A stretch of DNA of 34,406 nucleotides from Methanosarcinales archaeon (GTDB lineage Archaea > Halobacteriota > Syntropharchaeia > Alkanophagales > Methanospirareceae), in the NCBI GenBank assembly GCA_025464645.1, contig JAODGF010000005.1, positions 1 through 34,406 on the forward strand, read 5' to 3'. The position numbers were made by a program, and so were the translations under genes. Of this stretch, positions 11,690 to 30,693 are shown piece by piece (the first letter of the stretch is position 1; each line of letters begins with the position of its first letter). The notes under the pieces were generated by a model. That model ran no database searches, was not told the origin of the DNA, and saw only the letters and a program-made list of their open reading frames with translations.

Positions 11690-13468
11690 ATGAAAAGAAA
11701 ATTAGCTATCCTTTTGATATTAAGTATATCAGTAATACTACTAACACAAATAGCAGGATCGAGCTATTGCTTTGACGGTGTGCCTTATACAGACAAGCTG
11801 GATTTAGTAGCTCATGGCGCTTTAAAAGGTGGTATATATGTAGGTGAGAGTCGTGCACTTGCCTTCCCACCGTGTACAAGAACCTTCGCAGTGCCAGAGG
11901 ATGTCAAAATCAAGTGGGCGAGGCTGTATGTAGGAGTTTGGGGCGGCACGGAAAGATACACCGGTTGGGTTCACACAAAACTTAACGGGCAAGACCTCGG
12001 CAAGACGTTCCTCCTCGGCGAGAGGGATAACAATCCAAATGTTTATTGTAGTGGTCACGGCGTCTATTGGGTCTTTTATGATGTAGCAGATAAAGTATCG
12101 CCGGGGATAAACACCGCCATAGCGAACACCAGCAGGGGTGAACGTGGGAACAAACTCGATGGCAGGATATATAGTATCATCCTTGTAGCAATCTACGAGG
12201 ACGCGAATGCTCCTGAGATTTCATACTGGGTTGCAGATGGGAATGTGAATCTGCATGGTCTGGGCTGGGCAGGAACGGTGCCGACAACAAACGATTTCGC
12301 TTCGGTGAATTTTAAAGGCGCGATTGATCCCGCGAACGTAGAAGGAGCAGAACTTACCGCGGTTTATCTTGCCGGTAATCCCGGAGAACCAGACTACTTA
12401 GAGTTTAACGGGCAGGGCATAGGAGGAAATGACGTGGCAAACTGCGGAGACGGTGAAACTTACGGCATTGACCTCAAGACCTTTGACGTTACAAGGTATG
12501 TACAGGCAGAGAATAGCGCTCTTTTTCTGAGAGGGAAAGACATTAACGGCGATGGTAAAATAGAAGAGGATGACGAGGGCAACCGTGAGGGCGAGCATTA
12601 TCTTCATCCGGTTCTGACTGTTCTTATTGTTCGGCATAAAACCACAGAAAAAGCAATGCCTGACTTCTCCACCGAACTTGCACTGCCCAAGAATCTAACC
12701 GAGGGGGAGAATATGCTTACTACGGTCATAAATAATTATGGTGGATTGTTCGAGGACGATTTCGTATTGAAGGTCAGTGTTGATGGGTCAGAGATTTACT
12801 CGAAGGTCGTTCGTATGGATGCCAGCGGGATTAAGAAATTGGATGTCCCTTGGACCGCTACGCGCGGCGTGCATACCATCAAAGCAGAAGTTGATGCTGA
12901 GAGAGAAGTAGATGAATCGAACGAGGACAATAATGTTTTCACTTTGGAGGCTTATGTCATGCGTAAACCCGATTTGTCAGTAAAAATTCTAACGCCGGTA
13001 GCGGAGGAGAACCCTTCTTCTACTGCTTCTGCCTCCAGTGCAAATAGCAGAATTGGGATACTTGTAATAATGCCGTTGCTCATGTTTATCACGAAACCGG
13101 GGAATAAAAGAAGTCCCTTAGGTATTTTGATGTTTGTAATTCTGAGCGTTGCGTTGATTTTAAGCGGTTGCGTGGACAAACAGACTAAAGAGGAGCAACC
13201 AGGTATGCTCAGCTATTCGATCCCCGTAGAGATAGAAAATAAGGGAGAAGCAACAGCGATAAATTTTGAGTTATCTCTTTATGTGGATGGTGAGAAAAGC
13301 GTGACCAAAAGGATCAGAGAGTTAGAAGGTGGCAAATCCATCGTTGAAAAACTGCCAATTGTGGTGGCTGAAGGGAAACACCATATACGTGCAGTAGTGG
13401 ATGAGAAGAAAGAAGTTGAAGAATTCAGGAGGGATAATAACGAAGATGAGATTACATTCGATTTTTAG
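11690..13468 (+). CDS. Secreted DUF3344-like (type A module) + CARDB protein with an internal TM hairpin/lipobox and a second CARDB-like domain
   Basis: 592 aa with signal peptide 'KLAILLILSISVILLTQIAG'. Type A motifs are 'KWARLYVGVWGGTERYTGWV', 'NPNVYCSGHGVYW', 'DGRIYSIILVAIYE' and 'YWVADG'. The CARDB hallmark is 'VDESNEDNN'. Two hydrophobic helices at aa 455-493 end in 'LILSGC'. Confidence 0.6.
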   Translation: MKRKLAILLILSISVILLTQIAGSSYCFDGVPYTDKLDLVAHGALKGGIYVGESRALAFPPCTRTFAVPEDVKIKWARLYVGVWGGTERYTGWVHTKLNGQDLGKTFLLGERDNNPNVYCSGHGVYWVFYDVADKVSPGINTAIANTSRGERGNKLDGRIYSIILVAIYEDANAPEISYWVADGNVNLHGLGWAGTVPTTNDFASVNFKGAIDPANVEGAELTAVYLAGNPGEPDYLEFNGQGIGGNDVANCGDGETYGIDLKTFDVTRYVQAENSALFLRGKDINGDGKIEEDDEGNREGEHYLHPVLTVLIVRHKTTEKAMPDFSTELALPKNLTEGENMLTTVINNYGGLFEDDFVLKVSVDGSEIYSKVVRMDASGIKKLDVPWTATRGVHTIKAEVDAEREVDESNEDNNVFTLEAYVMRKPDLSVKILTPVAEENPSSTASASSANSRIGILVIMPLLMFITKPGNKRSPLGILMFVILSVALILSGCVDKQTKEEQPGMLSYSIPVEIENKGEATAINFELSLYVDGEKSVTKRIRELEGGKSIVEKLPIVVAEGKHHIRAVVDEKKEVEEFRRDNNEDEITFDF

Positions 13469-14453
13469 TGGTTTAACTCTTGCACTGATTATCTTTTCCA
13501 TTTTTACTTTTCCTTCAGCATCAGGCTCCTACGCGGGTGACAAGCCGCTCAATACGATAGCGCATGAAGAAATCTATGGCGGTATATTTTTTTCATTGGG
13601 AGATAGCAAATACAGTGGTCGGTTGAATTATAACGATACTTACGAGGTCAATTTTGAGCTCGGCGTGCTGAACACAGATAGAGATAAAGGAGTGAAATTA
13701 GCCAGGCTGTATGTCTATTGGGTCTGGAGCCAAAAAGAGAACGTGGGTGTGTACCCCATAATGGAAGTAAGGGCACCGGCAGAAAAAGAAGTTCTGAGTT
13801 CAGTCGTTACATACACGGATACGAAAGGATTTGTGGGTAAGTATGATTACTTCTCCGGCGTCAGTGTTTACAGTTGCAATTTAGATGGCGACTCCTACTC
13901 GGTTACCGTTAAAAACGTGGATGTAAATGGAAGCACTTTTTGCGTGCAGGGAATCGGATTGTTGGTGATATACGAATGTCAGGAGCAGGAGCCAGATCAA
14001 GATTGCCAGCTCATAGAGTACTGGGTCACTGAAGGCTGTGACATGATATATGCAGAGTATGGAATCACGCCTGAGATGGCTACCAGTAAGATTTTCTTTG
14101 ACGGTGAGCTGGAGTTGAAGAGGGTGAAGCGGGCATATTTAATAACCGTGGTTCCTTCAGGAGGATACGTATCAGGCGGAGAGACAGCGCATAATAAGCT
14201 TTACTTCAATGAAAAACGCGGGTGGCTTAGCAATCTCCCGTTCTTGAACCAGTTGCTGAGATTATTGTTCGGCTACGGTGGTGGTGTTTGGAGCGATGTG
14301 TATATTGCGGATAACACGGTCCAGATAGGAGTGGACCAGCGGGATGTTACTGAATATCTGAAGGCAACGAACAATTTTGCCGCAGTTCAAGATAATCATG
14401 ATTACATGATGGTGACAAATGCGGTGCTGGTGGTGGAGAAGGAAGAGAGATGA
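13446..14453 (+). CDS. Secreted single-module DUF3344-like protein (type B module)
   Basis: 335 aa from the ATG at 13446, with signal peptide 'LTLALIIFSIFTFPSASG'. Type B motifs are 'FFSLGDSKYSG', 'ARLYVYWVWS', 'GLLVIYE', 'EYWVTEGCDMIYA', 'LYFNE', 'DVTEYL' and 'DYMMVTNAVLVVE'. It overlaps the upstream gene by 23 nt. Confidence 0.6.
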   Translation: MRLHSIFSGLTLALIIFSIFTFPSASGSYAGDKPLNTIAHEEIYGGIFFSLGDSKYSGRLNYNDTYEVNFELGVLNTDRDKGVKLARLYVYWVWSQKENVGVYPIMEVRAPAEKEVLSSVVTYTDTKGFVGKYDYFSGVSVYSCNLDGDSYSVTVKNVDVNGSTFCVQGIGLLVIYECQEQEPDQDCQLIEYWVTEGCDMIYAEYGITPEMATSKIFFDGELELKRVKRAYLITVVPSGGYVSGGETAHNKLYFNEKRGWLSNLPFLNQLLRLLFGYGGGVWSDVYIADNTVQIGVDQRDVTEYLKATNNFAAVQDNHDYMMVTNAVLVVEKEER

Positions 14454-16717: not shown

Positions 16718-16857
16718 AAATGGGGCAAGTTAGGCAGTACCCCAATAGGTGAGAAGAAAAGGGAGGAAAAAAGTTATTTTGGTAAACCTTTTCTCCCACG
16801 CGCCGAGTAGGGGCGCGATATAAATACCAAAACAAATAGGAGGTGAAAAGAAAAAAG

Positions 16858-19800
16858 ATGAATAACAAAAATGGTATAGTATTGCTTGGAATAGTTGCGT
16901 TTTTTGCATTGGTTGCAATGACGGCGACAGCTTCTGCACAGCCAGCAGAGAACGTGGTTTGGCTCGAACCCGAGAATAGTAGTGTTCCAGGATATTGCAA
17001 CACCGTAGAGGTAGAAGTATGGGCTAACATAACTGATCCAGATGGATGTGCAGGTGGCACATTAAATATCACATACGATCCGGGATGTGCTAATGTAACA
17101 GATTGGGAACTCAACACTGTTGCTTGGCCAATGGGAACCTGGAATTCAAGTATCGAAGGCAGAGAGTGGATAACTTTCGAGACCATATTTAACCGAACTG
17201 GCAATGTACTAATTGGAACGCTGGCAATTCATTGCAAAAGTACAAGTTCATGCACAACTCCTTTGATATTCGATGAGGGTAGTTCATTGCTTGCAGAACC
17301 AGATGTAGAATGGAAAAACGGCACATTCACCTGTGAGGTCCCCAAACCCGACCTGAACGTGACTAAGGTTGAGGTGAATTATGATGCACCTGGTCTTGGT
17401 GGAAGAGCAGTCGGACCTGAACCTGGTCCTGGTGTGCACACGCAGTGTAACAACCTCTCTGCGGTGATAGAAAACCGCGGAGTATGCGTTGTATCTCCGT
17501 TCGATGTTACGTTTGAAGTAGATGGAACTACGTTATGTACAGTCCGAGTTCCTGGCTTGCCAGTTGGAGCTACCAAAACAGTGTATTGCAACTGTTCATG
17601 GTACCCCATGGCGGGGGACAGCTTTGCGATAAATGTCACCGTGGATTCTAATAACGAGATTCTTGAGTCCGATGAAACGAATAACACGATGTGGAATAAT
17701 GGAACAGTCGTTTCCAATGGCTACAAAGGCGGTGGTTGGCAGGGTCCTGACAGAAACCTGACAAACGTGCAGTGCCACTCACAAGATACGATCAATCTGA
17801 CCTATTCTGTCGGTGACAGCTATTATGCGAAAGGAAACTGGAGCGGAACTACGGAGTATGTGGTCAACTGGACTGCAAGTGATTTACCTGTTCCCGAGAA
17901 TGCAACCATCGAGAAGGCATGGCTATACGTGTATTATACATGGGACAAAGAGGGGATAATGCCAGACGGGGTTAACCTGAAGTTCAATGGTAACAATATA
18001 CCATTCGCTAGAAACTACTCGGACCGCAAGGGATTCGACGGTTATAACTATCCATACGGAATGCTAGTGTACGACGTGACCATCGCATTTACTGCAACGG
18101 GCAATACAGCAGTACTGACAAAAGCTACTCCTGATACCTACATACCGGTAAAGGGAACGCTTCTTATGGTTGTCTATAAGCATCCGGACGAGCCAGAGCG
18201 GATAATCTGCATTGACGAAGGATATGACATGATAAACGCACAGGCATCTTATGGTGTTACGCCGGAAGAGGCAACTACTTACGCCACATTCGAGTGCTGT
18301 GAGCCGATACCACTGAGCGAGATAGGAAAGGCTACACTGGTAGCTGTTGCGCCTGGTGCCAGTAAGGGGGATGACAAAAACAGGCTCTCATTCAATGGCG
18401 GACTATGGAAAGGAGCATGGTCAGGCTTTGCTGGGAGCACTGAACTCGGCATCGCTGAGACAGATGTACTAAATTATCTCAAAGAGGAAAACAACGTAGC
18501 AAACTTCCAAGACCGGGGCGACTGGATGGAAGCGAGCAACGCGTTCTTGATCTTGGAGAAAGGGATCGCAGAAAAGCCAGACTTAAAGGTGACGGAAATC
18601 GAGCTAAACTGCGGTGGCTACCTATTTGGAAACGAAAGCAATGAAATATGTGCAAAGATTGAGAACAACGGCAGCGGGGATGCAGGTGCATTCAATGTGA
18701 GCTTTGTTATTGACGGTTTCACCAAAGAAGCAAGAATAAACGGGTTGCCGGCAGGTGAAAATATAACGGTGTGCATTAAAGACACAACGAGCAGAAATGC
18801 TGGCGATTCCGTGAATGTTACCGTTACCACAGATTGCAATGGTGAAGTCTCCGAGTCGGATGAGACGAACAATGAATCCGCGATGACTACAACGGTAGTG
18901 AACAACGGCTACAAGGGCAAACGATACACGGGTGGCGATGACATCACTACATGGAAGACGTTTGAACTCCACGGTAACCTGGTGTACTCGCTTGGTGATA
19001 GCTACTATCTGAGTTCATACTCCTATCCTGACTGGACAACCTACACAGTCAATTGGACTGCAAGCGACCTGCCAGTTCCTGATACTGCAACCATCAAAGA
19101 AGCAAGATTGTATGTGCCGTACACATGGGACAAAGGAGGAGTAATGCCTGATGAGGTCAGCCTGACATTCAACGGAGTTGCTCAAACACTTGCTGCACAC
19201 TATTCAGATAGGAAAGGATACGGTGGCTACGATTACCCATACGGGATGCTGGTGTACAACGTAACCGGAGATTTTGATACAAGTGGCAATACCGCAGTTC
19301 TGCTCAACTCACATCCGGGTGGTGACAATGTATCCATACGCGGAATGCTCCTGGTAGTTGTGTATGCAGATGAGTGCGAACTGCCGCAGCGGAAACTATT
19401 TGTCAATGAAGGGTTCGACATGCTCTATGGTGGCGCATCTAAGTGTACAACGCCCGAAGAAGCAACGGCGTATGCACCATTCGGTGCGATGAAGATAGAT
19501 ATATCAAAGGTGGATAGTGCCAAACTGATAACCGTTGCCCCGGGTGCGGGTCCAAATGAAGGCGACCTGCTCTTCAATGGTCGGAGATGGAATGACGTGT
19601 GGAGCTTTACTACCGCTGCACAAATAGGCATTGATGAGCGCGATGTGACTTCCTATCTGCGTCCAACAGATAATGAAGCAGGGTTCCAGAGCAGCGGCGA
19701 CTACATGGAGGCAAGCAATGCCTTTTTGGTTGTGACGGAGAAAATAACAGAAGCAGAATACCAGAATATGATAACTCAGCCGATAGATGTCAGTAAAATC

Positions 19801-20010
19801 CGCTATAAGTTTATAGCCGTGAATGAGGAATGGGCAGCCAAATGGAGCAATGTGCTATTGTATGGACAGAGGGATACGAAGTATTCGATTGAGATACACC
19901 TAAATAAGGCGGGATATGTGACGAGTGTGGCTTTCGAGCGATGGGGCTTCCCAATAGCAGAGATCCCCGTTGAGCTTGCAGCACAGTCCTTAGCTAAGTT
20001 AAATCCATAA
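16858..20010 (+). CDS. Large secreted glycoprotein: cohesin-like domain + 2 x (CARDB + DUF3344-like type B module) + unknown C-terminal domain
   Basis: 1050 aa from the ATG at 16858; the ORF also opens at GTG 16843. Signal peptide is 'IVLLGIVAFFALVAMTATASA'. CARDB hallmarks are 'ILESDETNN' and 'VSESDETNN'. Type B motifs occur twice: 'SVGDSYY', 'WLYVYYTWDK', 'YSDRKG..GY.YPYGMLVY', 'NEG.DM' and 'ASNAFL'. I count 28 N-x-S/T sequons. Confidence 0.65.
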   Translation: MNNKNGIVLLGIVAFFALVAMTATASAQPAENVVWLEPENSSVPGYCNTVEVEVWANITDPDGCAGGTLNITYDPGCANVTDWELNTVAWPMGTWNSSIEGREWITFETIFNRTGNVLIGTLAIHCKSTSSCTTPLIFDEGSSLLAEPDVEWKNGTFTCEVPKPDLNVTKVEVNYDAPGLGGRAVGPEPGPGVHTQCNNLSAVIENRGVCVVSPFDVTFEVDGTTLCTVRVPGLPVGATKTVYCNCSWYPMAGDSFAINVTVDSNNEILESDETNNTMWNNGTVVSNGYKGGGWQGPDRNLTNVQCHSQDTINLTYSVGDSYYAKGNWSGTTEYVVNWTASDLPVPENATIEKAWLYVYYTWDKEGIMPDGVNLKFNGNNIPFARNYSDRKGFDGYNYPYGMLVYDVTIAFTATGNTAVLTKATPDTYIPVKGTLLMVVYKHPDEPERIICIDEGYDMINAQASYGVTPEEATTYATFECCEPIPLSEIGKATLVAVAPGASKGDDKNRLSFNGGLWKGAWSGFAGSTELGIAETDVLNYLKEENNVANFQDRGDWMEASNAFLILEKGIAEKPDLKVTEIELNCGGYLFGNESNEICAKIENNGSGDAGAFNVSFVIDGFTKEARINGLPAGENITVCIKDTTSRNAGDSVNVTVTTDCNGEVSESDETNNESAMTTTVVNNGYKGKRYTGGDDITTWKTFELHGNLVYSLGDSYYLSSYSYPDWTTYTVNWTASDLPVPDTATIKEARLYVPYTWDKGGVMPDEVSLTFNGVAQTLAAHYSDRKGYGGYDYPYGMLVYNVTGDFDTSGNTAVLLNSHPGGDNVSIRGMLLVVVYADECELPQRKLFVNEGFDMLYGGASKCTTPEEATAYAPFGAMKIDISKVDSAKLITVAPGAGPNEGDLLFNGRRWNDVWSFTTAAQIGIDERDVTSYLRPTDNEAGFQSSGDYMEASNAFLVVTEKITEAEYQNMITQPIDVSKIRYKFIAVNEEWAAKWSNVLLYGQRDTKYSIEIHLNKAGYVTSVAFERWGFPIAEIPVELAAQSLAKLNP
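17341..18564 (+). repeat. Internal tandem duplication unit 1 (CARDB + type B module)
   Basis: aa 167-574 align along their length with aa 578-967 of the same protein. Confidence 0.7.
18574..19743 (+). repeat. Internal tandem duplication unit 2 (CARDB + type B module)
   Basis: Shares the same motif order as unit 1, for example 'VNWTASDLPVP' in both. Confidence 0.7.
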
Positions 20011-20035: not shown

Positions 20036-20069
20036 AGCTCCTACCAAGGAGCTTTTTATTTTTTTATTT
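20036..20069 (+). terminator. Hairpin + T-tract terminator
   Basis: AGCTCCT-ACCA-AGGAGCT (7-bp stem) followed by TTTTATTTTTTTATTT, 26 nt after the stop at 20010. Confidence 0.55.
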
Positions 20070-20085
20070 ATTAATAACTATCGTG

Positions 20086-20093
20086 TTTATATA
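20086..20093 (+). promoter_or_regulatory. TATA box (TTTATATA)
   Basis: Consensus octamer centred ~29 nt upstream of the ATG at 20119. This is consistent with a leaderless mRNA and argues against the GTG at 20083 as start. Confidence 0.45.
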
Positions 20094-20118
20094 TGATGAG
20101 GGGGTAAAGAGCGGAAAA

Positions 20119-22395
20119 ATGAAAAAAATAAAATATTTGCTGGCAAGCATAAGCATTATTGCGATATTTTACGTCACCATACTGTGCTTGATGGCAGTTC
20201 CGGTGGCAGCTAACTACAACTTCGCGGGATGGCCCGTGGAAACGAGAACGAATGGTACCGTAAACGGCGGTGTGTTCATTGGCTGTGAACCCTGGGCTGG
20301 GACAGAAACGCTTACGGGAAATTTTGACGTGCCTAACGGAACGGTTAAATGGGCACGTTTATACACCGGTATATGGGGAGGAACGGAAGATTACGAAGGT
20401 TGGGTGAACGTAACGTTCAACGGTATTTATAATAGAAATGGGCTTGGACCAATACATTTACGGGGTGTGAATGATGAAAACCCAAATGTGTGGTGCAGCA
20501 CCTATGGAAAATACTGGCTGTGGTATAATGTAACTGATTTAGTCAATGCCGGAGCAATGAATACTGCAACTACCTCAAAGATTAATACAACTGCTGGCGG
20601 TTTTGACGGCAGGGTGTATGGCATTGTTCTGGTTGTGGTTTACGAAGGAGGAGATAACCCAAAGAACGTTCAATACTGGATAAACGATGGAAGTGATGCG
20701 CTTCACTGTGCTACCTGGCCTCCTATTGCACATGACTCAGGGGCAACATACTTCAACGGCACGGTGAACACGGGTATGGTAAGCAATGCAAATCTCACGG
20801 TGGTGCACCTGACAGCTTATGAGCCGGGTTGTGATAGTTGCTTGAAGTTTAATGGTCACCACCTGGACACAAGCATGGTGGACAGCAACACGTTTGAGCT
20901 GAACTCGTGGAATGTGACAAGTTACATAGCATCCTCAGGAAACAATGCCTGGTTCAGTCGAGGCGAAGACTGCTATGTTGGTATTACCAATGCGATATTA
21001 GTATTGGAAAGAGAAGCGGTGGAGCAGCCAGACCTTATGATTACTGCGATTAAACCTTATCATTACGAGTGGTCGGCATACTATGACATACCCAAAGGTG
21101 ACCCGTGGTACAATCTTACGAATTATGTGAATGTTACGGTGAAGAATAATGGGACGGTGGCTGCGGGAAGTTTTGTGGTGAAACTATATGCTGATGAGAA
21201 ACTAATAGGGAATGCAACAGTTGCGGGATTAGCAGCAAATACTACCACGGATGTGAAAATCGAATGGAAGCCTGAAGGTGAAGATGTATTAGGCTGGGTG
21301 GACACCGCAGAAGGCGCTAAAATTGCGCACAACGATACCAGTAAGAATTATATGTTAAGGGCAGTGGTTGACGAAGACAATAAGGTTTCGGAAAGCAACG
21401 AGGAGAACAATAACCTCACAAAAGAGCAGAAAGTGGTTTGGAACGGCTTTGCAAGCGACGAGCCTCTGGAAAATTACGCTCACGGGAAGGTAAAAGGCGG
21501 AATAATCTACACGACTGGGGATGGTCAATACCGCGGTGTTGATTGTGATGGCACTAAATATGGCACTTGTAATAACGTGAGTTACGATTTAGAGATTCCA
21601 GGTAGCGTAAAGCTGGCAAGACTGTATATCTATTATACGTGGGCGCAGCCACCTTATAAAGCACCAAAGATAGGCGTTACGCTGAACACGCCTTCTGATG
21701 CTGTTCAAGAGTTGAACATGGAAAGGAGCTATAACGACATAAAGGGCGATTTCAGCTCGCATAGATTCGTATGGGGTACATACGCATACAATATAACCGA
21801 TTATGTAAATGAAAGTGGAAGGTATGTAGTGAACATAACAAACCTGAATAATGGAAGCGATCCTGAGTTCGCAACGAAGTATGCACTTGCAGCACCAGCT
21901 ATTCTTGTTGTTTATGAGAATGCAAGTGGTGCACCGGAAAGAGAGTACTGGATAAATGAAGGTGCTGACATCCTATTAGGAGGGAGAAGGTGCAAAGGAG
22001 GTTTTCTTTCCTTAGAAGAATGCCTTAATCACGCTACTTTTTCCGGTAGCATAAATCTGAGCGAAGTAGAGAAGGCTACACTTGGCGTTGCTTCTCCATG
22101 GGCGGGGTTTAGCTGGGAGCCCGGAATGACTAACTATCTCTATTTCAATGACTTCGAGTTGGGAAGAAATGTGTACTGTGGATATGACAGTCAGTGCTGC
22201 AAAACAGTAAACGGTATGATGATGAATGTAGGAGCTAACAATGCTCAGGTAGGTGTGAACGTAACCGATGTGACGAACTATCTTAATCCAAGTGATAATG
22301 TAGTTATTCAAGGTGATGATGGCGACTGTATGATGCCGAGTAGTGCCTTTTTGGTGATAAGCAGAAAAAGTAAAGAAAGGGGTATAAGCAGATGA
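20119..22395 (+). CDS. Secreted glycoprotein: DUF3344-like type A module + CARDB + DUF3344-like type B module
   Basis: 758 aa from the ATG at 20119, with signal/TM 'YLLASISIIAIFYVTILCLMAVPVAA'. Type A motifs are 'KWARLYTGIWGGTEDYEGWV', 'NPNVWCSTYGKYW' and 'DGRVYGIVLVVVYE'. CARDB hallmark is 'VSESNEENNN'. Type B motifs are 'YTTGDGQYRG', 'ARLYIYYTW', 'EYWINEGADIL' and 'MMPSSAFLVI'. I count 23 sequons. Confidence 0.65.
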   Translation: MKKIKYLLASISIIAIFYVTILCLMAVPVAANYNFAGWPVETRTNGTVNGGVFIGCEPWAGTETLTGNFDVPNGTVKWARLYTGIWGGTEDYEGWVNVTFNGIYNRNGLGPIHLRGVNDENPNVWCSTYGKYWLWYNVTDLVNAGAMNTATTSKINTTAGGFDGRVYGIVLVVVYEGGDNPKNVQYWINDGSDALHCATWPPIAHDSGATYFNGTVNTGMVSNANLTVVHLTAYEPGCDSCLKFNGHHLDTSMVDSNTFELNSWNVTSYIASSGNNAWFSRGEDCYVGITNAILVLEREAVEQPDLMITAIKPYHYEWSAYYDIPKGDPWYNLTNYVNVTVKNNGTVAAGSFVVKLYADEKLIGNATVAGLAANTTTDVKIEWKPEGEDVLGWVDTAEGAKIAHNDTSKNYMLRAVVDEDNKVSESNEENNNLTKEQKVVWNGFASDEPLENYAHGKVKGGIIYTTGDGQYRGVDCDGTKYGTCNNVSYDLEIPGSVKLARLYIYYTWAQPPYKAPKIGVTLNTPSDAVQELNMERSYNDIKGDFSSHRFVWGTYAYNITDYVNESGRYVVNITNLNNGSDPEFATKYALAAPAILVVYENASGAPEREYWINEGADILLGGRRCKGGFLSLEECLNHATFSGSINLSEVEKATLGVASPWAGFSWEPGMTNYLYFNDFELGRNVYCGYDSQCCKTVNGMMMNVGANNAQVGVNVTDVTNYLNPSDNVVIQGDDGDCMMPSSAFLVISRKSKERGISR

Positions 22396-24425
22396 AAAAA
22401 ACGGTAACGGTAGTCGCAATTGCATTCGCATTAGCATGCTTGTTTTTGCTTTTAAGCTTAAGCATGCTTGCACCTGCTTTAGCGCAGGATGATGTGCCAG
22501 ACCTTGGAATTACTGCGATTAAACCTTATCATTACGAGTGGTATGAGGATTATGACATACCTAAGGGTGAGCCGTGGTTCAACCTTAAGAACTATGTGGA
22601 AGTTACCGTAGTGAACTTCGGGAATAAGACTGCCAAGAGTTTCGTGGTGAGACTGTACGCGGATGGAGAACTAATAGGGAGCAAAACGGTTGATGAATTG
22701 CCAGCATATTCAGAAGATTATCCAGAAGCCAATACCACAGACGTGGAATTCGAGTGGGTGCCTGAAGGAGAAGACCCCTTGAGCTGGATTGATAGCGCAG
22801 AAGGAGCTAAACTCGTTTATACCGATACTAATAGGATTTACACGCTAAAAGCGGTTGTTGACGAGAATATGAATGAACTCACAAAAGACCATGAAGTAGC
22901 TTGGAACGGCTATATGGCGGATGCAGCCTTAGAGAACCTTGTACACGACACGGTAAACGGAGGGATATTATACACGACTGGAGATGGTGAATACAGGAGT
23001 TATGAGAGTGGAGATGATGGTACTAGATATAACACATACTATGACATCAATTATGATTTAGAGATTGCAGAGGGCGCAAAGCTGGCAAGATTGTATATCT
23101 ACTACACATGGTCGAAGTCAAAGGGTGTTAAAGAACCAAAAGCGCCGAAGATAGGTGTTACCCTGAAGACGCCATCAGGTATCACTCATGATCTGAGCAT
23201 GGAAAAGAGCTATAACGATATAAAAGGTAATTTACCCCCGCCTTACCACACGTATAGGTATTATGCCTGGGGGACTTATACATACGATATTACGGATTAT
23301 ATGGAAGAAAGCGGAACTTATGTGGTGAGCGTGACGAACCTGAATGATGGAAGTGACGATGACTTCGCAACTGAGTATTCGTTTGCACCTCCTGCTATTC
23401 TCCTGGTATATGAGGATACAGCAGCGCCGAAAAGAGAATATTGGATAAATGAAGGTGCAGACGTCCTAATGGGAGGGGGGGATGAAAGACCAGAGGGAGG
23501 TTTTCTTGACTTAGAAGATTGCCTTAATCATGCTGAGTTCCCAGGAGAGCATTTAGATTTGGAAGTAGAGGAAGCAGTACTTGGCGTTGTCGCTCCATGG
23601 GCAGATGATTCGGAAGACGATGTCATTTACTTTAATGGCAGAGAACTTGGAAGAGGTTTGTATAAGGGATACCATAATGAATATAGAAGCAGCGAGGATA
23701 TAAAGGGCATTTTAATGAATATTGGTACGGATAAGGCACAAATAGGGATGGCTGCGATTGATGTTAAAAGGTACCTCGAAGATTCTGACAATGAAGTAAT
23801 CCAGGGCGATGACGGGGACAACATGATGCCTGCGAATGCGTTCTTAGTGATAACATATAAAGAAGAAGAGGAAGGGGAAGGCGAAGGAGAAGGAGAAGGA
23901 GAAGTTACGCTAGCTTCTCCAAACATAACTGCCTGGAACCCCTTTGATGCGGTTGTAAACAGCACAAAGGGCGAATCAAGAACGTTCAACATCACCGTAA
24001 ACCAGACAGTAGGTATTAGCTGGCAAATAAATGGTACAGAAGTGCAAACAAATGAAAGCGTGACAGAAGCTGCCTACACGAGCACAAGCGCAGTTCTTGG
24101 AACCTGGAACGTCTCTGTAATGGCAACTAACACATCAACCGGATTATTCGATATGCACACATGGACGTGGCACGTAACACCTGCACTTACTGTAACGCCT
24201 ACACCTGCGAAAGCCATAACTACAACACCTTCACCTACTCCATCTCCAATTTTAATATCAACACCTGCCGTACCAGGTGCTACACCAACTCCCACACCAG
24301 TTCCAACACCTTCTGCCGAGGAAAAGCCAGGAGCAGAAGAAAAAACACCGGGATTTGAACTTGTAATCTCGTTATTTATATTAATTGCAGCAGCGTATCT
24401 AATAAGAAAGCATGAACGGAAATAA
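22392..24425 (+). CDS. PGF-CTERM-anchored protein: CARDB + DUF3344-like type B module + (EG)n linker + Ig/PKD-like domain + Thr/Pro linker
   Basis: 677 aa with a signal peptide. It is a paralogue of aa 316-770 of the upstream protein. The C-terminus is 'TPGFELVISLFILIAAAYLIRKHERK' (PGF tripeptide + TM + basic tail). ATGA start/stop overlap with the upstream gene. Confidence 0.7.
   Translation: MKKTVTVVAIAFALACLFLLLSLSMLAPALAQDDVPDLGITAIKPYHYEWYEDYDIPKGEPWFNLKNYVEVTVVNFGNKTAKSFVVRLYADGELIGSKTVDELPAYSEDYPEANTTDVEFEWVPEGEDPLSWIDSAEGAKLVYTDTNRIYTLKAVVDENMNELTKDHEVAWNGYMADAALENLVHDTVNGGILYTTGDGEYRSYESGDDGTRYNTYYDINYDLEIAEGAKLARLYIYYTWSKSKGVKEPKAPKIGVTLKTPSGITHDLSMEKSYNDIKGNLPPPYHTYRYYAWGTYTYDITDYMEESGTYVVSVTNLNDGSDDDFATEYSFAPPAILLVYEDTAAPKREYWINEGADVLMGGGDERPEGGFLDLEDCLNHAEFPGEHLDLEVEEAVLGVVAPWADDSEDDVIYFNGRELGRGLYKGYHNEYRSSEDIKGILMNIGTDKAQIGMAAIDVKRYLEDSDNEVIQGDDGDNMMPANAFLVITYKEEEEGEGEGEGEGEVTLASPNITAWNPFDAVVNSTKGESRTFNITVNQTVGISWQINGTEVQTNESVTEAAYTSTSAVLGTWNVSVMATNTSTGLFDMHTWTWHVTPALTVTPTPAKAITTTPSPTPSPILISTPAVPGATPTPTPVPTPSAEEKPGAEEKTPGFELVISLFILIAAAYLIRKHERK
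23862..23903 (+). repeat. GAA/GGN hexanucleotide-type microsatellite encoding EEEEGEGEGEGEGE
   Basis: gaagaagaggaaggggaaggcgaaggagaaggagaaggagaa, including three perfect GAAGGA units at 23883..23900. Confidence 0.8.
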
Positions 24426-27303: not shown

Positions 27304-30300
27304 TTAAGATAACAAATCTACCCTTATTGTTTTTCCTTCCATCACTGCTTCTTCTGGCACGCTTATCTCTCTCTCTAAATCCCACACTACCGTTCCGTCC
27401 TCCAGGCGACGACCAGTACGTATTTTATAAGATGATGCAAAAACATCGTATCCTTCAACCGTTTTTTCTGTTGAATACGGCACGACGAACTCGTATGTGC
27501 CGTTTGACCTCACTTGCTGTGAATACACAAATTCTCTCCCCTGGTTTGTGGTGACGTTTGTTGCTATTTCAACAATCGAGCCATTAGGCGCAGTTCCCTC
27601 TATTCTCGCCCCTTTTACGTATTCGAATGTCTTCACAAAACTCACGGGCTGTATATATTCCGGTGCCCATGCTTTTATGTTTGGTTGCCCGGTTTTGACG
27701 CCATAAAGGTAAACGTTTAGCTTTCCTTCTTTCTTATTGATGTTAAATATGTTTTCATTTGTCGTGTCTCGGATTGTCCAACGGGTCCCGTCAATTGTTA
27801 TAACCGTGCTATCCTCAGAAAGCGGAAAGCCCGTGGAATTAAGCGCGCTGCTCAATATTTCGGGTATGCTCTCATTATCCAGAACTTCCTCTATCCCTAC
27901 CCCTGCGGGCATACTGAACAAATACCCGTGAAGAATCTGCGCTTGCGATTCCGTGTTGATATAATCACCGGAAAAAGGTCGCCAATACATCTTCCCCTCT
28001 TTTTCGTCTATAATAACCAAAGGAAGAACAAAAGTGGGAGACTCATGCACTAACCGGTAGTGAGCTAAGGCGGGTATGTTTTCACCATCTACCTCTACTC
28101 TTGTACCATCAAATAGATGCAACCGCGCTTCCATCGTATTATAATAGCGTGAAAGGGAGTTAAAGTATTGTGAGTTCCCAGCCCAAACCGTTATCGCACT
28201 GAACTTTGGCGTACGACCTAACCAAGAGCATATCCCCCATACATCCGCCATTTCCAAGTCGCTTATCACATATCTCGTGCCGAGTTCGTCTAATATCCAA
28301 TTCGCTTCCCCTTCATCACTCGATACGAAGAACGTGCATGCGCCGGGTCTTATCGAGCCATCCTCATTTGTACCACCTATACCACCCTGAAACGGATTTG
28401 AATTGGGAATGCGATGTGCATAAAGTGTTATCACGTGTCCGTAATCCCACCAGCTCATCACGCCGTAAGCGCTATCCGGATATTTGTAATCTTCATTACG
28501 CGGAGGTTCTTCGTATAGCGCATAGTAATCCACGCCCGGATCGGGAGTATTGTTTCTCATCCACAATAACGATTCGTACCAATCAGGGTGGAACACAGAA
28601 GGACCAGCCTTGGCTTGGTAATATGTGCGCTCAAAATTCTCCGGCATGTTCGCAGGGAAGGGTTTAGCTATATTGAACGGGAACGGATAAAAGATAATGA
28701 AAATCACTACAATTAATACTATGATGCGATTTGGCGTGACATACTGCTTTATCTTTCTAATACCCGTTTCAGGCACTTCCTTTTTCTTACTTTCTACCTT
28801 CTGTCCCCGCTTTCCCTCCTCCTCCTTCTGCTTTTCTTTCTTCCCTTTGATCCTTTTTCCTTCTGCCTTCGGTTTCCCCGTCTCAGCGAAAAAAGCGAAG
28901 CTAAACTGAGTCACCCGAACAGCGAATAAGCCGCAAAGTAGTGCCACGTTTACCGCGTAATAATACACAAACCGATTTTGACCAATTGGTGGAGGGCGAA
29001 TACCAAACATGTCAAACATTACACCCAGTAACATGAGGTCTACAAAACACCAAACGAGAAACAGGGTCTCTTCAGGTCTCCATTTCCGTATTACACCGTA
29101 AATAACAAATGCAAAAGCGACAAGAGAGACGTAAAAACAGGTGGAAAAGTGTCCTAAGGCTGCACCCAGTGTCATTGGATGCATTTCCCCTATTACCTGC
29201 ATGCCTGTACTATACTTTACCCAACCCATTGCATGTATCAGCGAAGCATATTGAGATGGAAACAGCACATTTAAAAAAACTAAAGCCAGTATGCCCATGC
29301 CCAAAACCGCAACAGGATAAGCATGGCGAGCTATTCCTTTTCTTGTCATAACTGTTGATAGGATACTTAACAGCAAGACCACAAGCGCTCCTATGAGCAG
29401 TGAGGCTACATGTGCCGACCTATACATCCCCGGATGCTTCAAGAACGGTATGATCATTAATAGCGGAATCAGAAATACCGGGACACCGACCATGCATAGA
29501 TAATCCGTGGAATTGCCACGTAAATGCTCTATGAGGTACAGAGCGAAAAGAGCGACAAAAATGATGAAAGCGAACAAGACGCAACCAACCCAGGTAAGTG
29601 CATAAAGACCAAAAGAGAAACCCGCGAGGAAAATATAGACTAAGGGATTTCTTAAGGTTTTCCAATCTCCTCTCGCTATGTGGTCAAAAGTTATGCCAGC
29701 GGTTTTTGCTCGTTTCAGTGCCATCACCAGAAACATCATTGCTATCGTGCTGAATAAGACTTCTCCAACATGATGGTCCATTGCACCTAAGATGGAGCGA
29801 AACAAGAAACCGGGTAATATAGCGATTAAAAATGCAGAGAGCAAACCCACTTCCCTGCTATATAATTCTTTACCGATGAAATAAACAGGGAAAACAACCA
29901 GAGCACCGAGGACAGCGGGGTAATATGCCCCTACGGTCTCCATTAGCATGCGCGTGGGTGCGCCCAAGCTGATAAGCCATGTAAAAAATGCAGGTATCAG
30001 GTCAAATAAAGGAGCAAAATGAAGATGGTCGCCATGCGGGAAAAGAGTATAGGGGTCGAAATAAATCCTGTGTGGGAAATGATTGCCAAAAAGCATGTTC
30101 TCTATTAATCTTAGGTGATATACGGGGTCATCAGAACCAAACATCACCATTTCTCCACCAAAAACGCGCGCATAAGGCAGTACAGTTCTTATGATGAGGG
30201 AAATGCCAAAAACAGTGAAAAGGATATTGAACACGGGGAGTCTTTCGATGAGGTCATGCAGGTTCACACCCTTTTGTGTCTTTGCATCACCAAAAGTATC

Positions 30301-30693
30301 GACAAAATGGGCTTTGTTTGATATAATAATTGGCACCGCGATTACGCCCACCGCGATAAAAGACACAAAGCACACCCAGTTTTCCGCCAAAAAGCTTGGC
30401 GGGCTAAAGGCGGTGGTGAGAGGATAGATAATTATAAGGGATTCAAGCAAAATTAGCGCAGCATAAAACGCCCCTTTCTTTCGCAGCCAGATTCCGTATG
30501 CAATCGGGAAAGCAGAAAGGGCAAAGATGTCTAAAATCCCTGAGGAGGCACTTAGCTCTGACACGAATAGCGCGTGAAGAAGAGAAATGAGGGCGACTAA
30601 ACCGCAAAAAACAAGCAGCATAGTGGTTATCTGTATGCCTAAAGCTTCTGTTACCCTTCTGTTCTCTTTCCTCTCTTGCTGTGGTCTTTTCAT
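27304..30693 (-). CDS. aglB: Archaeal oligosaccharyltransferase AglB (STT3 family), long form
   Basis: 1129 aa and multi-TM. 'GSDDPVYH' (first acidic loop motif) follows a TM helix. 'WWDYGH' lies at nt 28438..28452. A large C-terminal soluble region ends in a CarboxypepD_reg/Ig-like segment. Confidence 0.85.
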   Translation of the reverse strand: MKRPQQERKENRRVTEALGIQITTMLLVFCGLVALISLLHALFVSELSASSGILDIFALSAFPIAYGIWLRKKGAFYAALILLESLIIIYPLTTAFSPPSFLAENWVCFVSFIAVGVIAVPIIISNKAHFVDTFGDAKTQKGVNLHDLIERLPVFNILFTVFGISLIIRTVLPYARVFGGEMVMFGSDDPVYHLRLIENMLFGNHFPHRIYFDPYTLFPHGDHLHFAPLFDLIPAFFTWLISLGAPTRMLMETVGAYYPAVLGALVVFPVYFIGKELYSREVGLLSAFLIAILPGFLFRSILGAMDHHVGEVLFSTIAMMFLVMALKRAKTAGITFDHIARGDWKTLRNPLVYIFLAGFSFGLYALTWVGCVLFAFIIFVALFALYLIEHLRGNSTDYLCMVGVPVFLIPLLMIIPFLKHPGMYRSAHVASLLIGALVVLLLSILSTVMTRKGIARHAYPVAVLGMGILALVFLNVLFPSQYASLIHAMGWVKYSTGMQVIGEMHPMTLGAALGHFSTCFYVSLVAFAFVIYGVIRKWRPEETLFLVWCFVDLMLLGVMFDMFGIRPPPIGQNRFVYYYAVNVALLCGLFAVRVTQFSFAFFAETGKPKAEGKRIKGKKEKQKEEEGKRGQKVESKKKEVPETGIRKIKQYVTPNRIIVLIVVIFIIFYPFPFNIAKPFPANMPENFERTYYQAKAGPSVFHPDWYESLLWMRNNTPDPGVDYYALYEEPPRNEDYKYPDSAYGVMSWWDYGHVITLYAHRIPNSNPFQGGIGGTNEDGSIRPGACTFFVSSDEGEANWILDELGTRYVISDLEMADVWGICSWLGRTPKFSAITVWAGNSQYFNSLSRYYNTMEARLHLFDGTRVEVDGENIPALAHYRLVHESPTFVLPLVIIDEKEGKMYWRPFSGDYINTESQAQILHGYLFSMPAGVGIEEVLDNESIPEILSSALNSTGFPLSEDSTVITIDGTRWTIRDTTNENIFNINKKEGKLNVYLYGVKTGQPNIKAWAPEYIQPVSFVKTFEYVKGARIEGTAPNGSIVEIATNVTTNQGREFVYSQQVRSNGTYEFVVPYSTEKTVEGYDVFASSYKIRTGRRLEDGTVVWDLEREISVPEEAVMEGKTIRVDLLS

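Follow-up and report, generated by a model that had tools for sequence, protein, structure and literature searches.

Contrasting N-glycosylation sequon content of two paralogous DUF3344/CARDB surface proteins encoded in tandem by an ANME-1 archaeon

What does it mean that two adjacent genes encode related surface proteins which carry 15 and 2 N-glycosylation sequons (N-x-S/T) in the same domains? The question is raised by a 34,406-nucleotide stretch of archaeal DNA (hereafter the window; GenBank assembly GCA_025464645.1, contig JAODGF010000005.1), which is contig C101 of a 1.67-Mb metagenome-assembled genome (MAG), 87% complete. The source organism belongs to the anaerobic methanotrophic archaea (ANME) of the ANME-1/Methanophagales group, its relatives being annotated as ANME-1 cluster archaeon, Methanophagales and Candidatus Methanophagaceae. 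ANME-1 are responsible for a large share of marine anaerobic methane oxidation, have no pure culture, and lack a described envelope protein. The literature also states that the group has no known S-layer protein (PMC9012536, PMC5244752) and that CARDB, cohesin and dockerin domains are expanded in it (for CARDB, PMC5244752).

The two genes, C1 (20119..22395, + strand, 758 amino acids (aa) from the ATG at 20119) and C2 (22392..24425, + strand, 677 aa), share a 455-aa head consisting of a CARDB domain and a DUF3344 domain of type B. The C1 head begins PDLMITAIKPYHYEW and is encoded at 21028..22395 (+), the C2 head at 22497..23861 (+). DUF3344 (PF11824) scores 303 bits over two domains in C1 and 152 bits in C2 (gathering cut-off 27.2), CARDB (PF07705) 67.6 and 27.2 bits (cut-off 22.7). 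The initial annotation of the window, based on manual counts, proposed that the two heads represent deliberately different surface chemistries, glycan-shielded and bare/acidic, next to the oligosaccharyltransferase (OST) gene.

Sequon content and charge of the two heads

A scripted recount reproduced the 15 sequons of the C1 head and the two (NKT and NTT) of the C2 head exactly. The heads are 60% identical over 433 aligned columns, and their alignment contains all of the replacements quoted initially: NLT>NLK, NVT>EVT, NAT>SKT, NDT>TDT, NLT>ELT and the block starting with YNITDY. The 15:2 split is unlikely to be random (binomial p = 0.0023), and the fraction of Asn residues that lie within sequons differs as well (36% in C1, 8% in C2; Fisher p=0.019). 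Expected sequon numbers were obtained from 5000 composition-preserving shuffles. The C1 head exceeds its expectation of 4.96±1.99 threefold, 15 sequons being reached in 0/5000 shuffles (P<2e-4), while the C2 head is neutral, with no depletion (2 observed, 2.53±1.47 expected). The other eight sequons of C2 are gathered at aa 511-580, in a C-terminal Ig-like domain, as had been noted. This tail shows a fourfold enrichment (1.94±1.20 expected, eight reached in 0/5000 shuffles). Since the neutral head and the enriched stalk share one polypeptide, topology or export route is excluded as the cause of the difference.

Over their full length, C1 has 23 sequons (eight of them in aa 1-315, ahead of the head) and C2 has 10. 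Three further DUF3344 proteins are encoded upstream: A1 (11690..13468, + strand) and A2 (13401..14453, + strand) with two sequons each, not above expectation, and the 1055-aa B (16843..20010, + strand), which has two CARDB+DUF3344 units and 28 sequons against 11.6 expected. All five proteins score far over the Pfam cut-offs. The counts for A1, A2, B and C1 agree with the earlier ones, and the rich copies are 2.4- to 3-fold above the composition-matched expectation. Sequons above chance, the mark of an N-glycoprotein, are thus found in the C1 head, B and the C2 tail and are lacking in the C2 head, A1 and A2.

Comparison with the rest of the proteome, in which open reading frame (ORF) calling and the hydrophobicity-based "secreted-like" class are crude heuristics, gave 0.31 sequons per 100 aa (observed/expected 0.90) for cytoplasmic ORFs and 0.94 (observed/expected 1.66) for secreted-like ORFs of this genome. 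Because of this difference in the observed/expected ratios, we conclude that the exported proteins of this organism experience positive selection for sequons. Among the 115 secreted-like proteins of 200 aa or longer, C1 (2.99 per 100 aa) ranks 6th and B (2.65) 8th. With 0.44 per 100 aa, the C2 head is above the lower quartile (0.30) but below the median (0.76) for the secreted-like class, near the cytoplasmic mean. The two chemistries of the initial annotation are therefore real, non-random and, as described below, maintained in evolution; the "bare" head, in its turn, is at chance level and not a sequon-depleted copy.

The C2 head is strongly acidic: it contains 88 Asp+Glu residues, including the DDSEDD and GDERPEGG stretches pointed out initially, and has a net charge of -52 (isoelectric point (pI) 4.25) versus -19 (pI 4.75) for the C1 head. 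About 20 conserved acidic columns are specific to C2; they are spread over both the CARDB and DUF3344 parts and do not form a single patch. C2 positions of about 284-293 and 351-371 are among the conserved acidic ones. Could the loss of sequons be just a by-product of an Asn-to-Asp/Glu shift in one copy, without any glycosylation meaning? Asn content falls from 9.2% in the C1 head to 5.5% in the C2 head, Asp or Glu stands in C2 opposite 7 of the 15 Asn residues that form the C1 head sequons, and the C2 head sits exactly at its composition expectation, all as such a drift would predict. It would not account for the threefold excess of the rich copy over its own composition-matched expectation, and the conservation of the contrast also bears on it.

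Conservation and ancestry of the contrast

The full C1-then-C2 tandem pair was found in three other genomes, where the C1-type and C2-type heads have 16 and 2 sequons (AG-394-G06, L044), 11 and 2 (binchicken_co116_93, L045) and 13 and 1 (CSMAG_2415, L046), respectively. In most relatives the gene directly upstream of C2 codes for a type-A DUF3344 domain only. A search of a 5.8-billion-protein collection yielded 116 heads, 75 of which belong to proteins of the C2 architecture, with the head first and a PGF-CTERM sorting signal last. All 75 have few sequons in the head (1-6, median 2), and the median number of Asp+Glu is 88. Summed over these proteins, the heads contain 212 sequons against 209.5 expected (observed/expected 1.01), while the tails contain 418 against 139.1, a threefold excess. 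Heads in the database sample are bimodal, having either at most 6 sequons with at least 61 Asp+Glu or 12-16 sequons with 55-59 Asp+Glu. The contrast is kept in dozens of relatives, so it is probably functional. The low-A/high-B pattern recurs too: A1 has two sequons, A2 two or three (the low counts being kept in the orthologues at L047 and L048) and B-like proteins 15-21.

In one lineage, the type-A domain, the head and the PGF-CTERM signal are fused into a single protein (L048 6993-9536, L050 951-3377 and 19 database proteins of about 805-890 aa). These proteins are sequon-poor throughout, with 3-9 sequons in total.

A tree of 42 heads was built in IQ-TREE under the LG+C20 model. The four C1-type heads (11-16 sequons) form a clade (support 100/99). 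Its sister group (100/98) has 10 members, which include all C2 orthologues (1-5 sequons), two of the fused proteins (5 each) and a Methanoperedens head, L051 (10). The next outgroup, L034, has 15 sequons. A tree constrained to unite the C1 and C2 heads of the close genomes, four of each, is worse by 76.8 log-likelihood units (approximately unbiased (AU) test, p=2.6e-9; both groups used in the AU tests were chosen after the tree had been seen). As this topology is rejected, the duplication predates the divergence of several genera and the C1 head has been lost elsewhere. A recent tandem duplication followed by rapid divergence is thus ruled out.

Sequon columns 36, 43, 50, 363, 369, 414 and 546, as well as 457 and 473, are family-wide. 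They are retained in the C1 heads, the outgroups and the large sister clade and are missing in all or nearly all of the seven core C2 heads; columns 260 and 467 have sequons in C1 only. When the presence of sequons was traced by Fitch parsimony, which gives minimum estimates, the duplication node received 7 or more sequons and the C1 ancestor 12, as against 5 for the ancestor of the C2-containing clade and 1 for that of the C2 core. To the question of sequon loss or gain, left by the initial annotation, the answer is therefore both, as C2 lost about six sequons and C1 gained about five.

Returning to compositional drift, eight sequon columns are constant in four of four C1 heads, the tail of the same C2 polypeptide is threefold enriched across the 75 proteins, and the dichotomy is bimodal, conserved and has an acidic side that arose or was retained in two head lineages. 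With these observations against it, we regard drift as an improbable explanation.

The second acidic lineage comprises the PGF-anchored heads of GoMg1 (L035/L053) and CONS3730B06UFb1 (L036/L056). The L035 and L036 heads have 2 sequons and 86-88 Asp+Glu and are nested in the other main clade, which is mostly sequon-richer. A single origin of all acidic sequon-poor heads was rejected at a cost of 134 log-likelihood units (AU p=2.7e-9). GoMg1 and the window are close relatives over the rest of the locus: identity is 84% for the 188-aa protein and for the oligosaccharyltransferase AglB, 82% for the binding protein and 78% for the 363-aa protein. The C2 head is only 53% identical (L053 1707-3665 versus window 22392-24425), the L053 head coming from the other clade. 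Apparently, either the head at the GoMg1 locus was swapped between lineages or the acidic state arose twice, the chemistry being retained in both cases. The two acidic lineages have 20 and 32 clade-specific acidic columns and share 7 of them, which fits a largely independent acidification.

The heads also differ in cysteine, with 8 Cys residues in the C1 head and 1 in the C2 head, a contrast as sharp as that in sequons. Heads of the other main clade have 2-16 Cys (most of them 8-16). Since its acidic heads keep 9-11, Cys loss is specific to the C2-core lineage and independent of acidity.

Two Methanoperedens heads (L051 and L067, contig JBGOYM010000002) nest in different clades of the ANME-1 head tree, which suggests that such surface-protein genes have moved from one ANME lineage to another.

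Architecture of C1 and C2 and their possible arrangement

C1 starts with a hydrophobic helix which may serve as a signal or an anchor, followed by a DUF3344 domain of type A (20227..21009, +), CARDB and DUF3344 of type B; there is no C-terminal anchor in C1. Its ORF (20083..22395) opens at a GTG at 20083, which would give 770 aa. C2 has a Sec-type signal peptide. Its head is followed by a Glu/Gly linker EEEEGEGEGEGEGE (23862..23903, +) and the stalk (23904..24182, +), which is called Ig-like by its residue pattern alone, as Pfam assigns no family there, and which carries its eight sequons within 70 residues (Asn codons at 23922, 23958, 23988, 24000, 24030, 24051, 24108 and 24129). A Pro/Thr-rich linker (24183..24344, +), read from the sequence, leads to the PGF-CTERM signal (24345..24425, +), composed of PGF, a hydrophobic helix and a basic tail. 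This signal matches PF18204 at 20.7-23.7 bits (cut-off 18.8) and is below the cut-off of NCBIfam TIGR04126. A regular expression scan of the genome found about 14 PGF-CTERM-like proteins (15 pattern matches, one of them doubtful), C2 being the largest. The presumed processing enzyme, archaeosortase A, is encoded elsewhere in the genome (TIGR04125, 213 bits, cut-off 75; G000:C33:1975-2721, - strand, locus L074), in contrast to a 2017 domain survey which reported ANME-1 to be without it (PMC5244752).

The C2 start codon overlaps the C1 stop codon (4-nt ATGA at 22392-22395) and is preceded by a purine-rich stretch resembling a ribosome-binding site. A hairpin with a T-run (AGCTCCT-ACCA-AGGAGCT, 20036..20067, + strand, read from the sequence), located 3' of gene B, sets unit B apart from the C1-C2 pair. 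C1 and C2 can thus be expected to be co-produced subunits rather than alternative coats, because of the ATGA overlap. One could still imagine the two proteins as coats used at different times, glycan-shielded or bare, for instance to evade viruses; this would be the strongest form of the "deliberately different" chemistries proposed initially. Surface proteins are common virus receptors, and heads seem exchangeable between lineages, as the GoMg1 locus bears a head of the other clade. However, the overlap leaves no intergenic promoter space, which implies co-expression, and C1, having no membrane anchor, cannot take the place of C2 on the cell. No invertible or switch element was seen in the window, though no search aimed at one was made. 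We therefore consider alternative coats very improbable.

How could the two proteins work together? C1 and C2 carry old paralogous CARDB+DUF3344 heads that follow opposite N-glycosylation regimes. AglB would attach glycans to the Asn of N-x-S/T in exported proteins, and the C1 head, the N-terminal domain of C1, B and the C2 stalk, which are kept sequon-dense (about 2.5 to 4 times expectation), would acquire a dense glycan coat. The C2 head, presumably displayed on its glycosylated stalk, the Pro/Thr linker and an archaeosortase-processed PGF-CTERM lipid anchor, shows no selection for sequons and has turned strongly polyanionic instead. We suggest that this anchored acidic head is a contact surface, for protein-protein and possibly cation-bridged interactions, where glycans would interfere, and that its unanchored paralogue C1 is the exposed, glycan-covered part. 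C1 and C2 would then be translated together and join in one surface assembly, in which a polyanionic base, lipid-anchored and free of glycans, has a glycan-coated partner. Translational coupling, the constant presence of a type-A DUF3344 gene beside C2 and the natural fusions of type-A domains to heads argue for one assembly, and we consider this arrangement the most likely one, with an even chance of being right. Glycan occupancy, lipid anchoring, the C1-C2 complex and the choice of the buried face are all features that we infer from the gene sequences.

Several observations weigh against this arrangement. As the C2 head is at chance, selection against glycans is unsupported, and only an absence of selection for them is observed. 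Six acidic, sequon-poor heads in the database sample bear other tails, so the trait may track head lineage as much as the anchor. For an association of the PGF anchor with sequon poverty, the tree offers only four independent contrasts, too few for significance, of which three agree and one is a tie (sign test p=0.25). Path lengths among the four close genomes (0.33 for the C1 heads, 0.36 for the C2 heads) indicate similar evolutionary rates, with no hint of additional constraint on a C2 surface that would be buried. The long stalk under the C2 head would equally suit an exposed binding head. The heuristic protein classes and the AU groups chosen after inspection of the tree, both mentioned above, should be added to this list.

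The main rival explanation starts from the same stalk. The C2 head itself could be the exposed working surface, binding cations, minerals, a partner cell or extracellular cytochromes, with glycans absent because they would mask it and with C1 as a paralogue of its own, either secreted or shielded. Together, stalk, linker and anchor would push the head away from the membrane. The C2-specific acidic columns are scattered and not confined to one patch, which together with the similar rates of the two heads suits an exposed surface, as does the recurrence of acidification in a second head lineage with only part of the columns in common. In addition, a solved CARDB relative, 3idu, was crystallised with di-metal ions. 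Translational coupling with C1 and the recurrent fusion of the C1-type N-terminal domain to heads point to a complex instead, and no ligand-binding motif or known binding fold was found in the head. On balance we think an exposed working head possible and somewhat unlikely; the sequence evidence does not separate it from the contact surface described above.

AlphaFold2 (AF2) models were of good quality both for the C1 head (predicted local distance difference test (pLDDT) 90.9, predicted template modelling score (pTM) 0.88) and for the DUF3344-B domain of C2 (22884-23864; pLDDT 87.5, pTM 0.90). The CARDB part superposes on 3idu, 2kl6 and 2l0d with target-normalised template modelling (TM) scores of 0.77-0.83, and a profile search against PDB sequences returned CARDB domains alone, these three included. 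The DUF3344 model is a tandem beta-sandwich/jelly-roll. Its best Foldseek matches were PNGase F (1png, 3pms, 3ks7), double-jelly-roll capsid proteins and glycosidase accessory domains, at TM 0.2-0.27. A PNGase F-like fold was rejected: TM is 0.24-0.27 and the root mean square deviation (rmsd) 13.8-16.9 Å for 1png, 1pnf, 3pms and 3ks7, while TM above 0.5 would be needed. Assignment of function from the fold failed as well, since Foldseek against PDB and viral models gives either CARDB or generic jelly-roll/PNGase-F-class matches at TM 0.2-0.3. DUF3344 may be a distinct cellular double-beta-sandwich fold.

Locus context and known systems

The genome has eight DUF3344 domains, seven of them within the window. 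The sole DUF3344 gene outside it (G000 C150:10304-11758, - strand) codes for a protein with 1 sequon versus 3.7 expected and has a masked run (X/N) near its 5' end. The cluster recurs in other Methanophagales, where it includes A1, A2, a MacB-like ATPase, an FtsX permease, B, the C1 N-terminal domain or full C1, and C2, and continues with a 188-aa PGF-CTERM protein, a 363-aa protein and a binding protein.

AglB (27304..30693, - strand; 1129 aa), with STT3, AglB core and AglB_L1 domains and a WWDYG motif in its translation, is presumed to be the enzyme that uses the sequons. Its position near the C1-C2 pair, pointed out in the initial annotation, is incidental. No AglB homologue was found in the fetched flanks of orthologous loci. 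In G011 aglB and the locus are on the same contig, at 0.51 and 1.01 Mb, and in G024, G017, G013 and G023 they are on different contigs; the proximity seen in the window is not conserved. A functional tie of the locus to the adjacent AglB was therefore rejected for lack of synteny. In several relatives, the match to the C-terminal peripheral domain of AglB (query residues about 1000-1128) is an adjacent piece separate from the catalytic part (G011:C1:510333-513281; G013:C2, C46 and C143; G023:C247), and the middle of the window's long AglB is unmatched. This AglB, 84% identical to that of GoMg1, may contain lineage-specific insertions.

It is tempting to see the whole DUF3344/CARDB cluster as cell-envelope proteins of ANME-1, S-layer or sheath-like, in which C2 would form a cation-bridged lattice via its polyanionic heads, with C1 (or the stand-alone N-terminal domain) and B making the outer sugar-coated face. 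We consider such a lattice doubtful. In any case, the dichotomy predicts which parts of a conserved Methanophagales locus are sugar-coated and which are naked and polyanionic. It could provide a first handle on ANME-1 envelope architecture, on the surfaces contacting partners or minerals and on likely virus receptors. For archaeal glycobiology it represents a clean natural experiment, since in 60% identical paralogous domains about 7 ancestral sites were lost from one copy and retained by its counterpart.

Related proteins are present in other archaea: DUF3344/CARDB surface proteins of Methanosarcinales and ANME in Pfam have the same domains as C1, C2, A1, A2 and B, and DUF3344/CARDB-type proteins predicted to be extracellular are encoded on Methanoperedens plasmids (PMC9674854). 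In our literature searches DUF3344 came up only in passing, as a domain predicted to be at the surface or possibly to act as an adhesin, and no published function was found for it. The searches also brought up neither a description of its members as split by sequons or charge nor an envelope protein of ANME-1. PNGase F and the double-jelly-roll proteins resemble DUF3344 in fold class only (rmsd above 13 Å, about 10% identity) and allow no catalytic inference. A further comparison is offered by the glycan shields of viral and eukaryotic glycoproteins, in which dense sequons cover exposed surfaces and contact patches are sequon-free. Unlike in those shields, the contrast between C1 and C2 is one between whole paralogous archaeal domains and goes together with strong acidification.

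Another point of reference is provided by the surface proteins of ANME that carry cohesin or dockerin (Chadwick et al. 2022, PMC9012536), as related ANME-1 heads are fused to such modules. A cohesin is fused to the head at L063 4692-6653 (44 bits), and C-terminal dockerin repeats occur at L059 7029-9809 (36 bits), L041 and L038. These fusions show the head family in use as a building block of extracellular assemblies and connect DUF3344/CARDB proteins with the cohesin-dockerin expansions known from ANME. No Pfam match to cohesin (PF00963) or Dockerin_1 (PF00404) was found in C1, C2 and B of the window.

The closest counterpart of C2 is the S-layer glycoprotein of Haloferax volcanii (HVO_2072 family, ArtA-dependent), which similarly has acidic beta-rich extracellular domains, a Thr/Pro-rich stalk and PGF-CTERM. 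Its sorting signal is processed by archaeosortase A and it is N-glycosylated by AglB, the counterpart features of C2 being predicted from genes. Membership of C2 in the HVO_2072-type S-layer family was rejected, as the TIGR04216 match is confined to the linker and anchor and its score of 19.1 bits is far below the cut-off (400). In contrast to HVO_2072, the C2 head consists of CARDB and DUF3344 instead of csg domains, and a glycan-rich unanchored paralogue is co-encoded. Overall, judging from its genes, the locus can be considered an uncharacterised but recognisable archaeal surface-glycoprotein system with an unusually clean and conserved split between a predicted glycan-rich paralogue and a predicted glycan-free acidic one.

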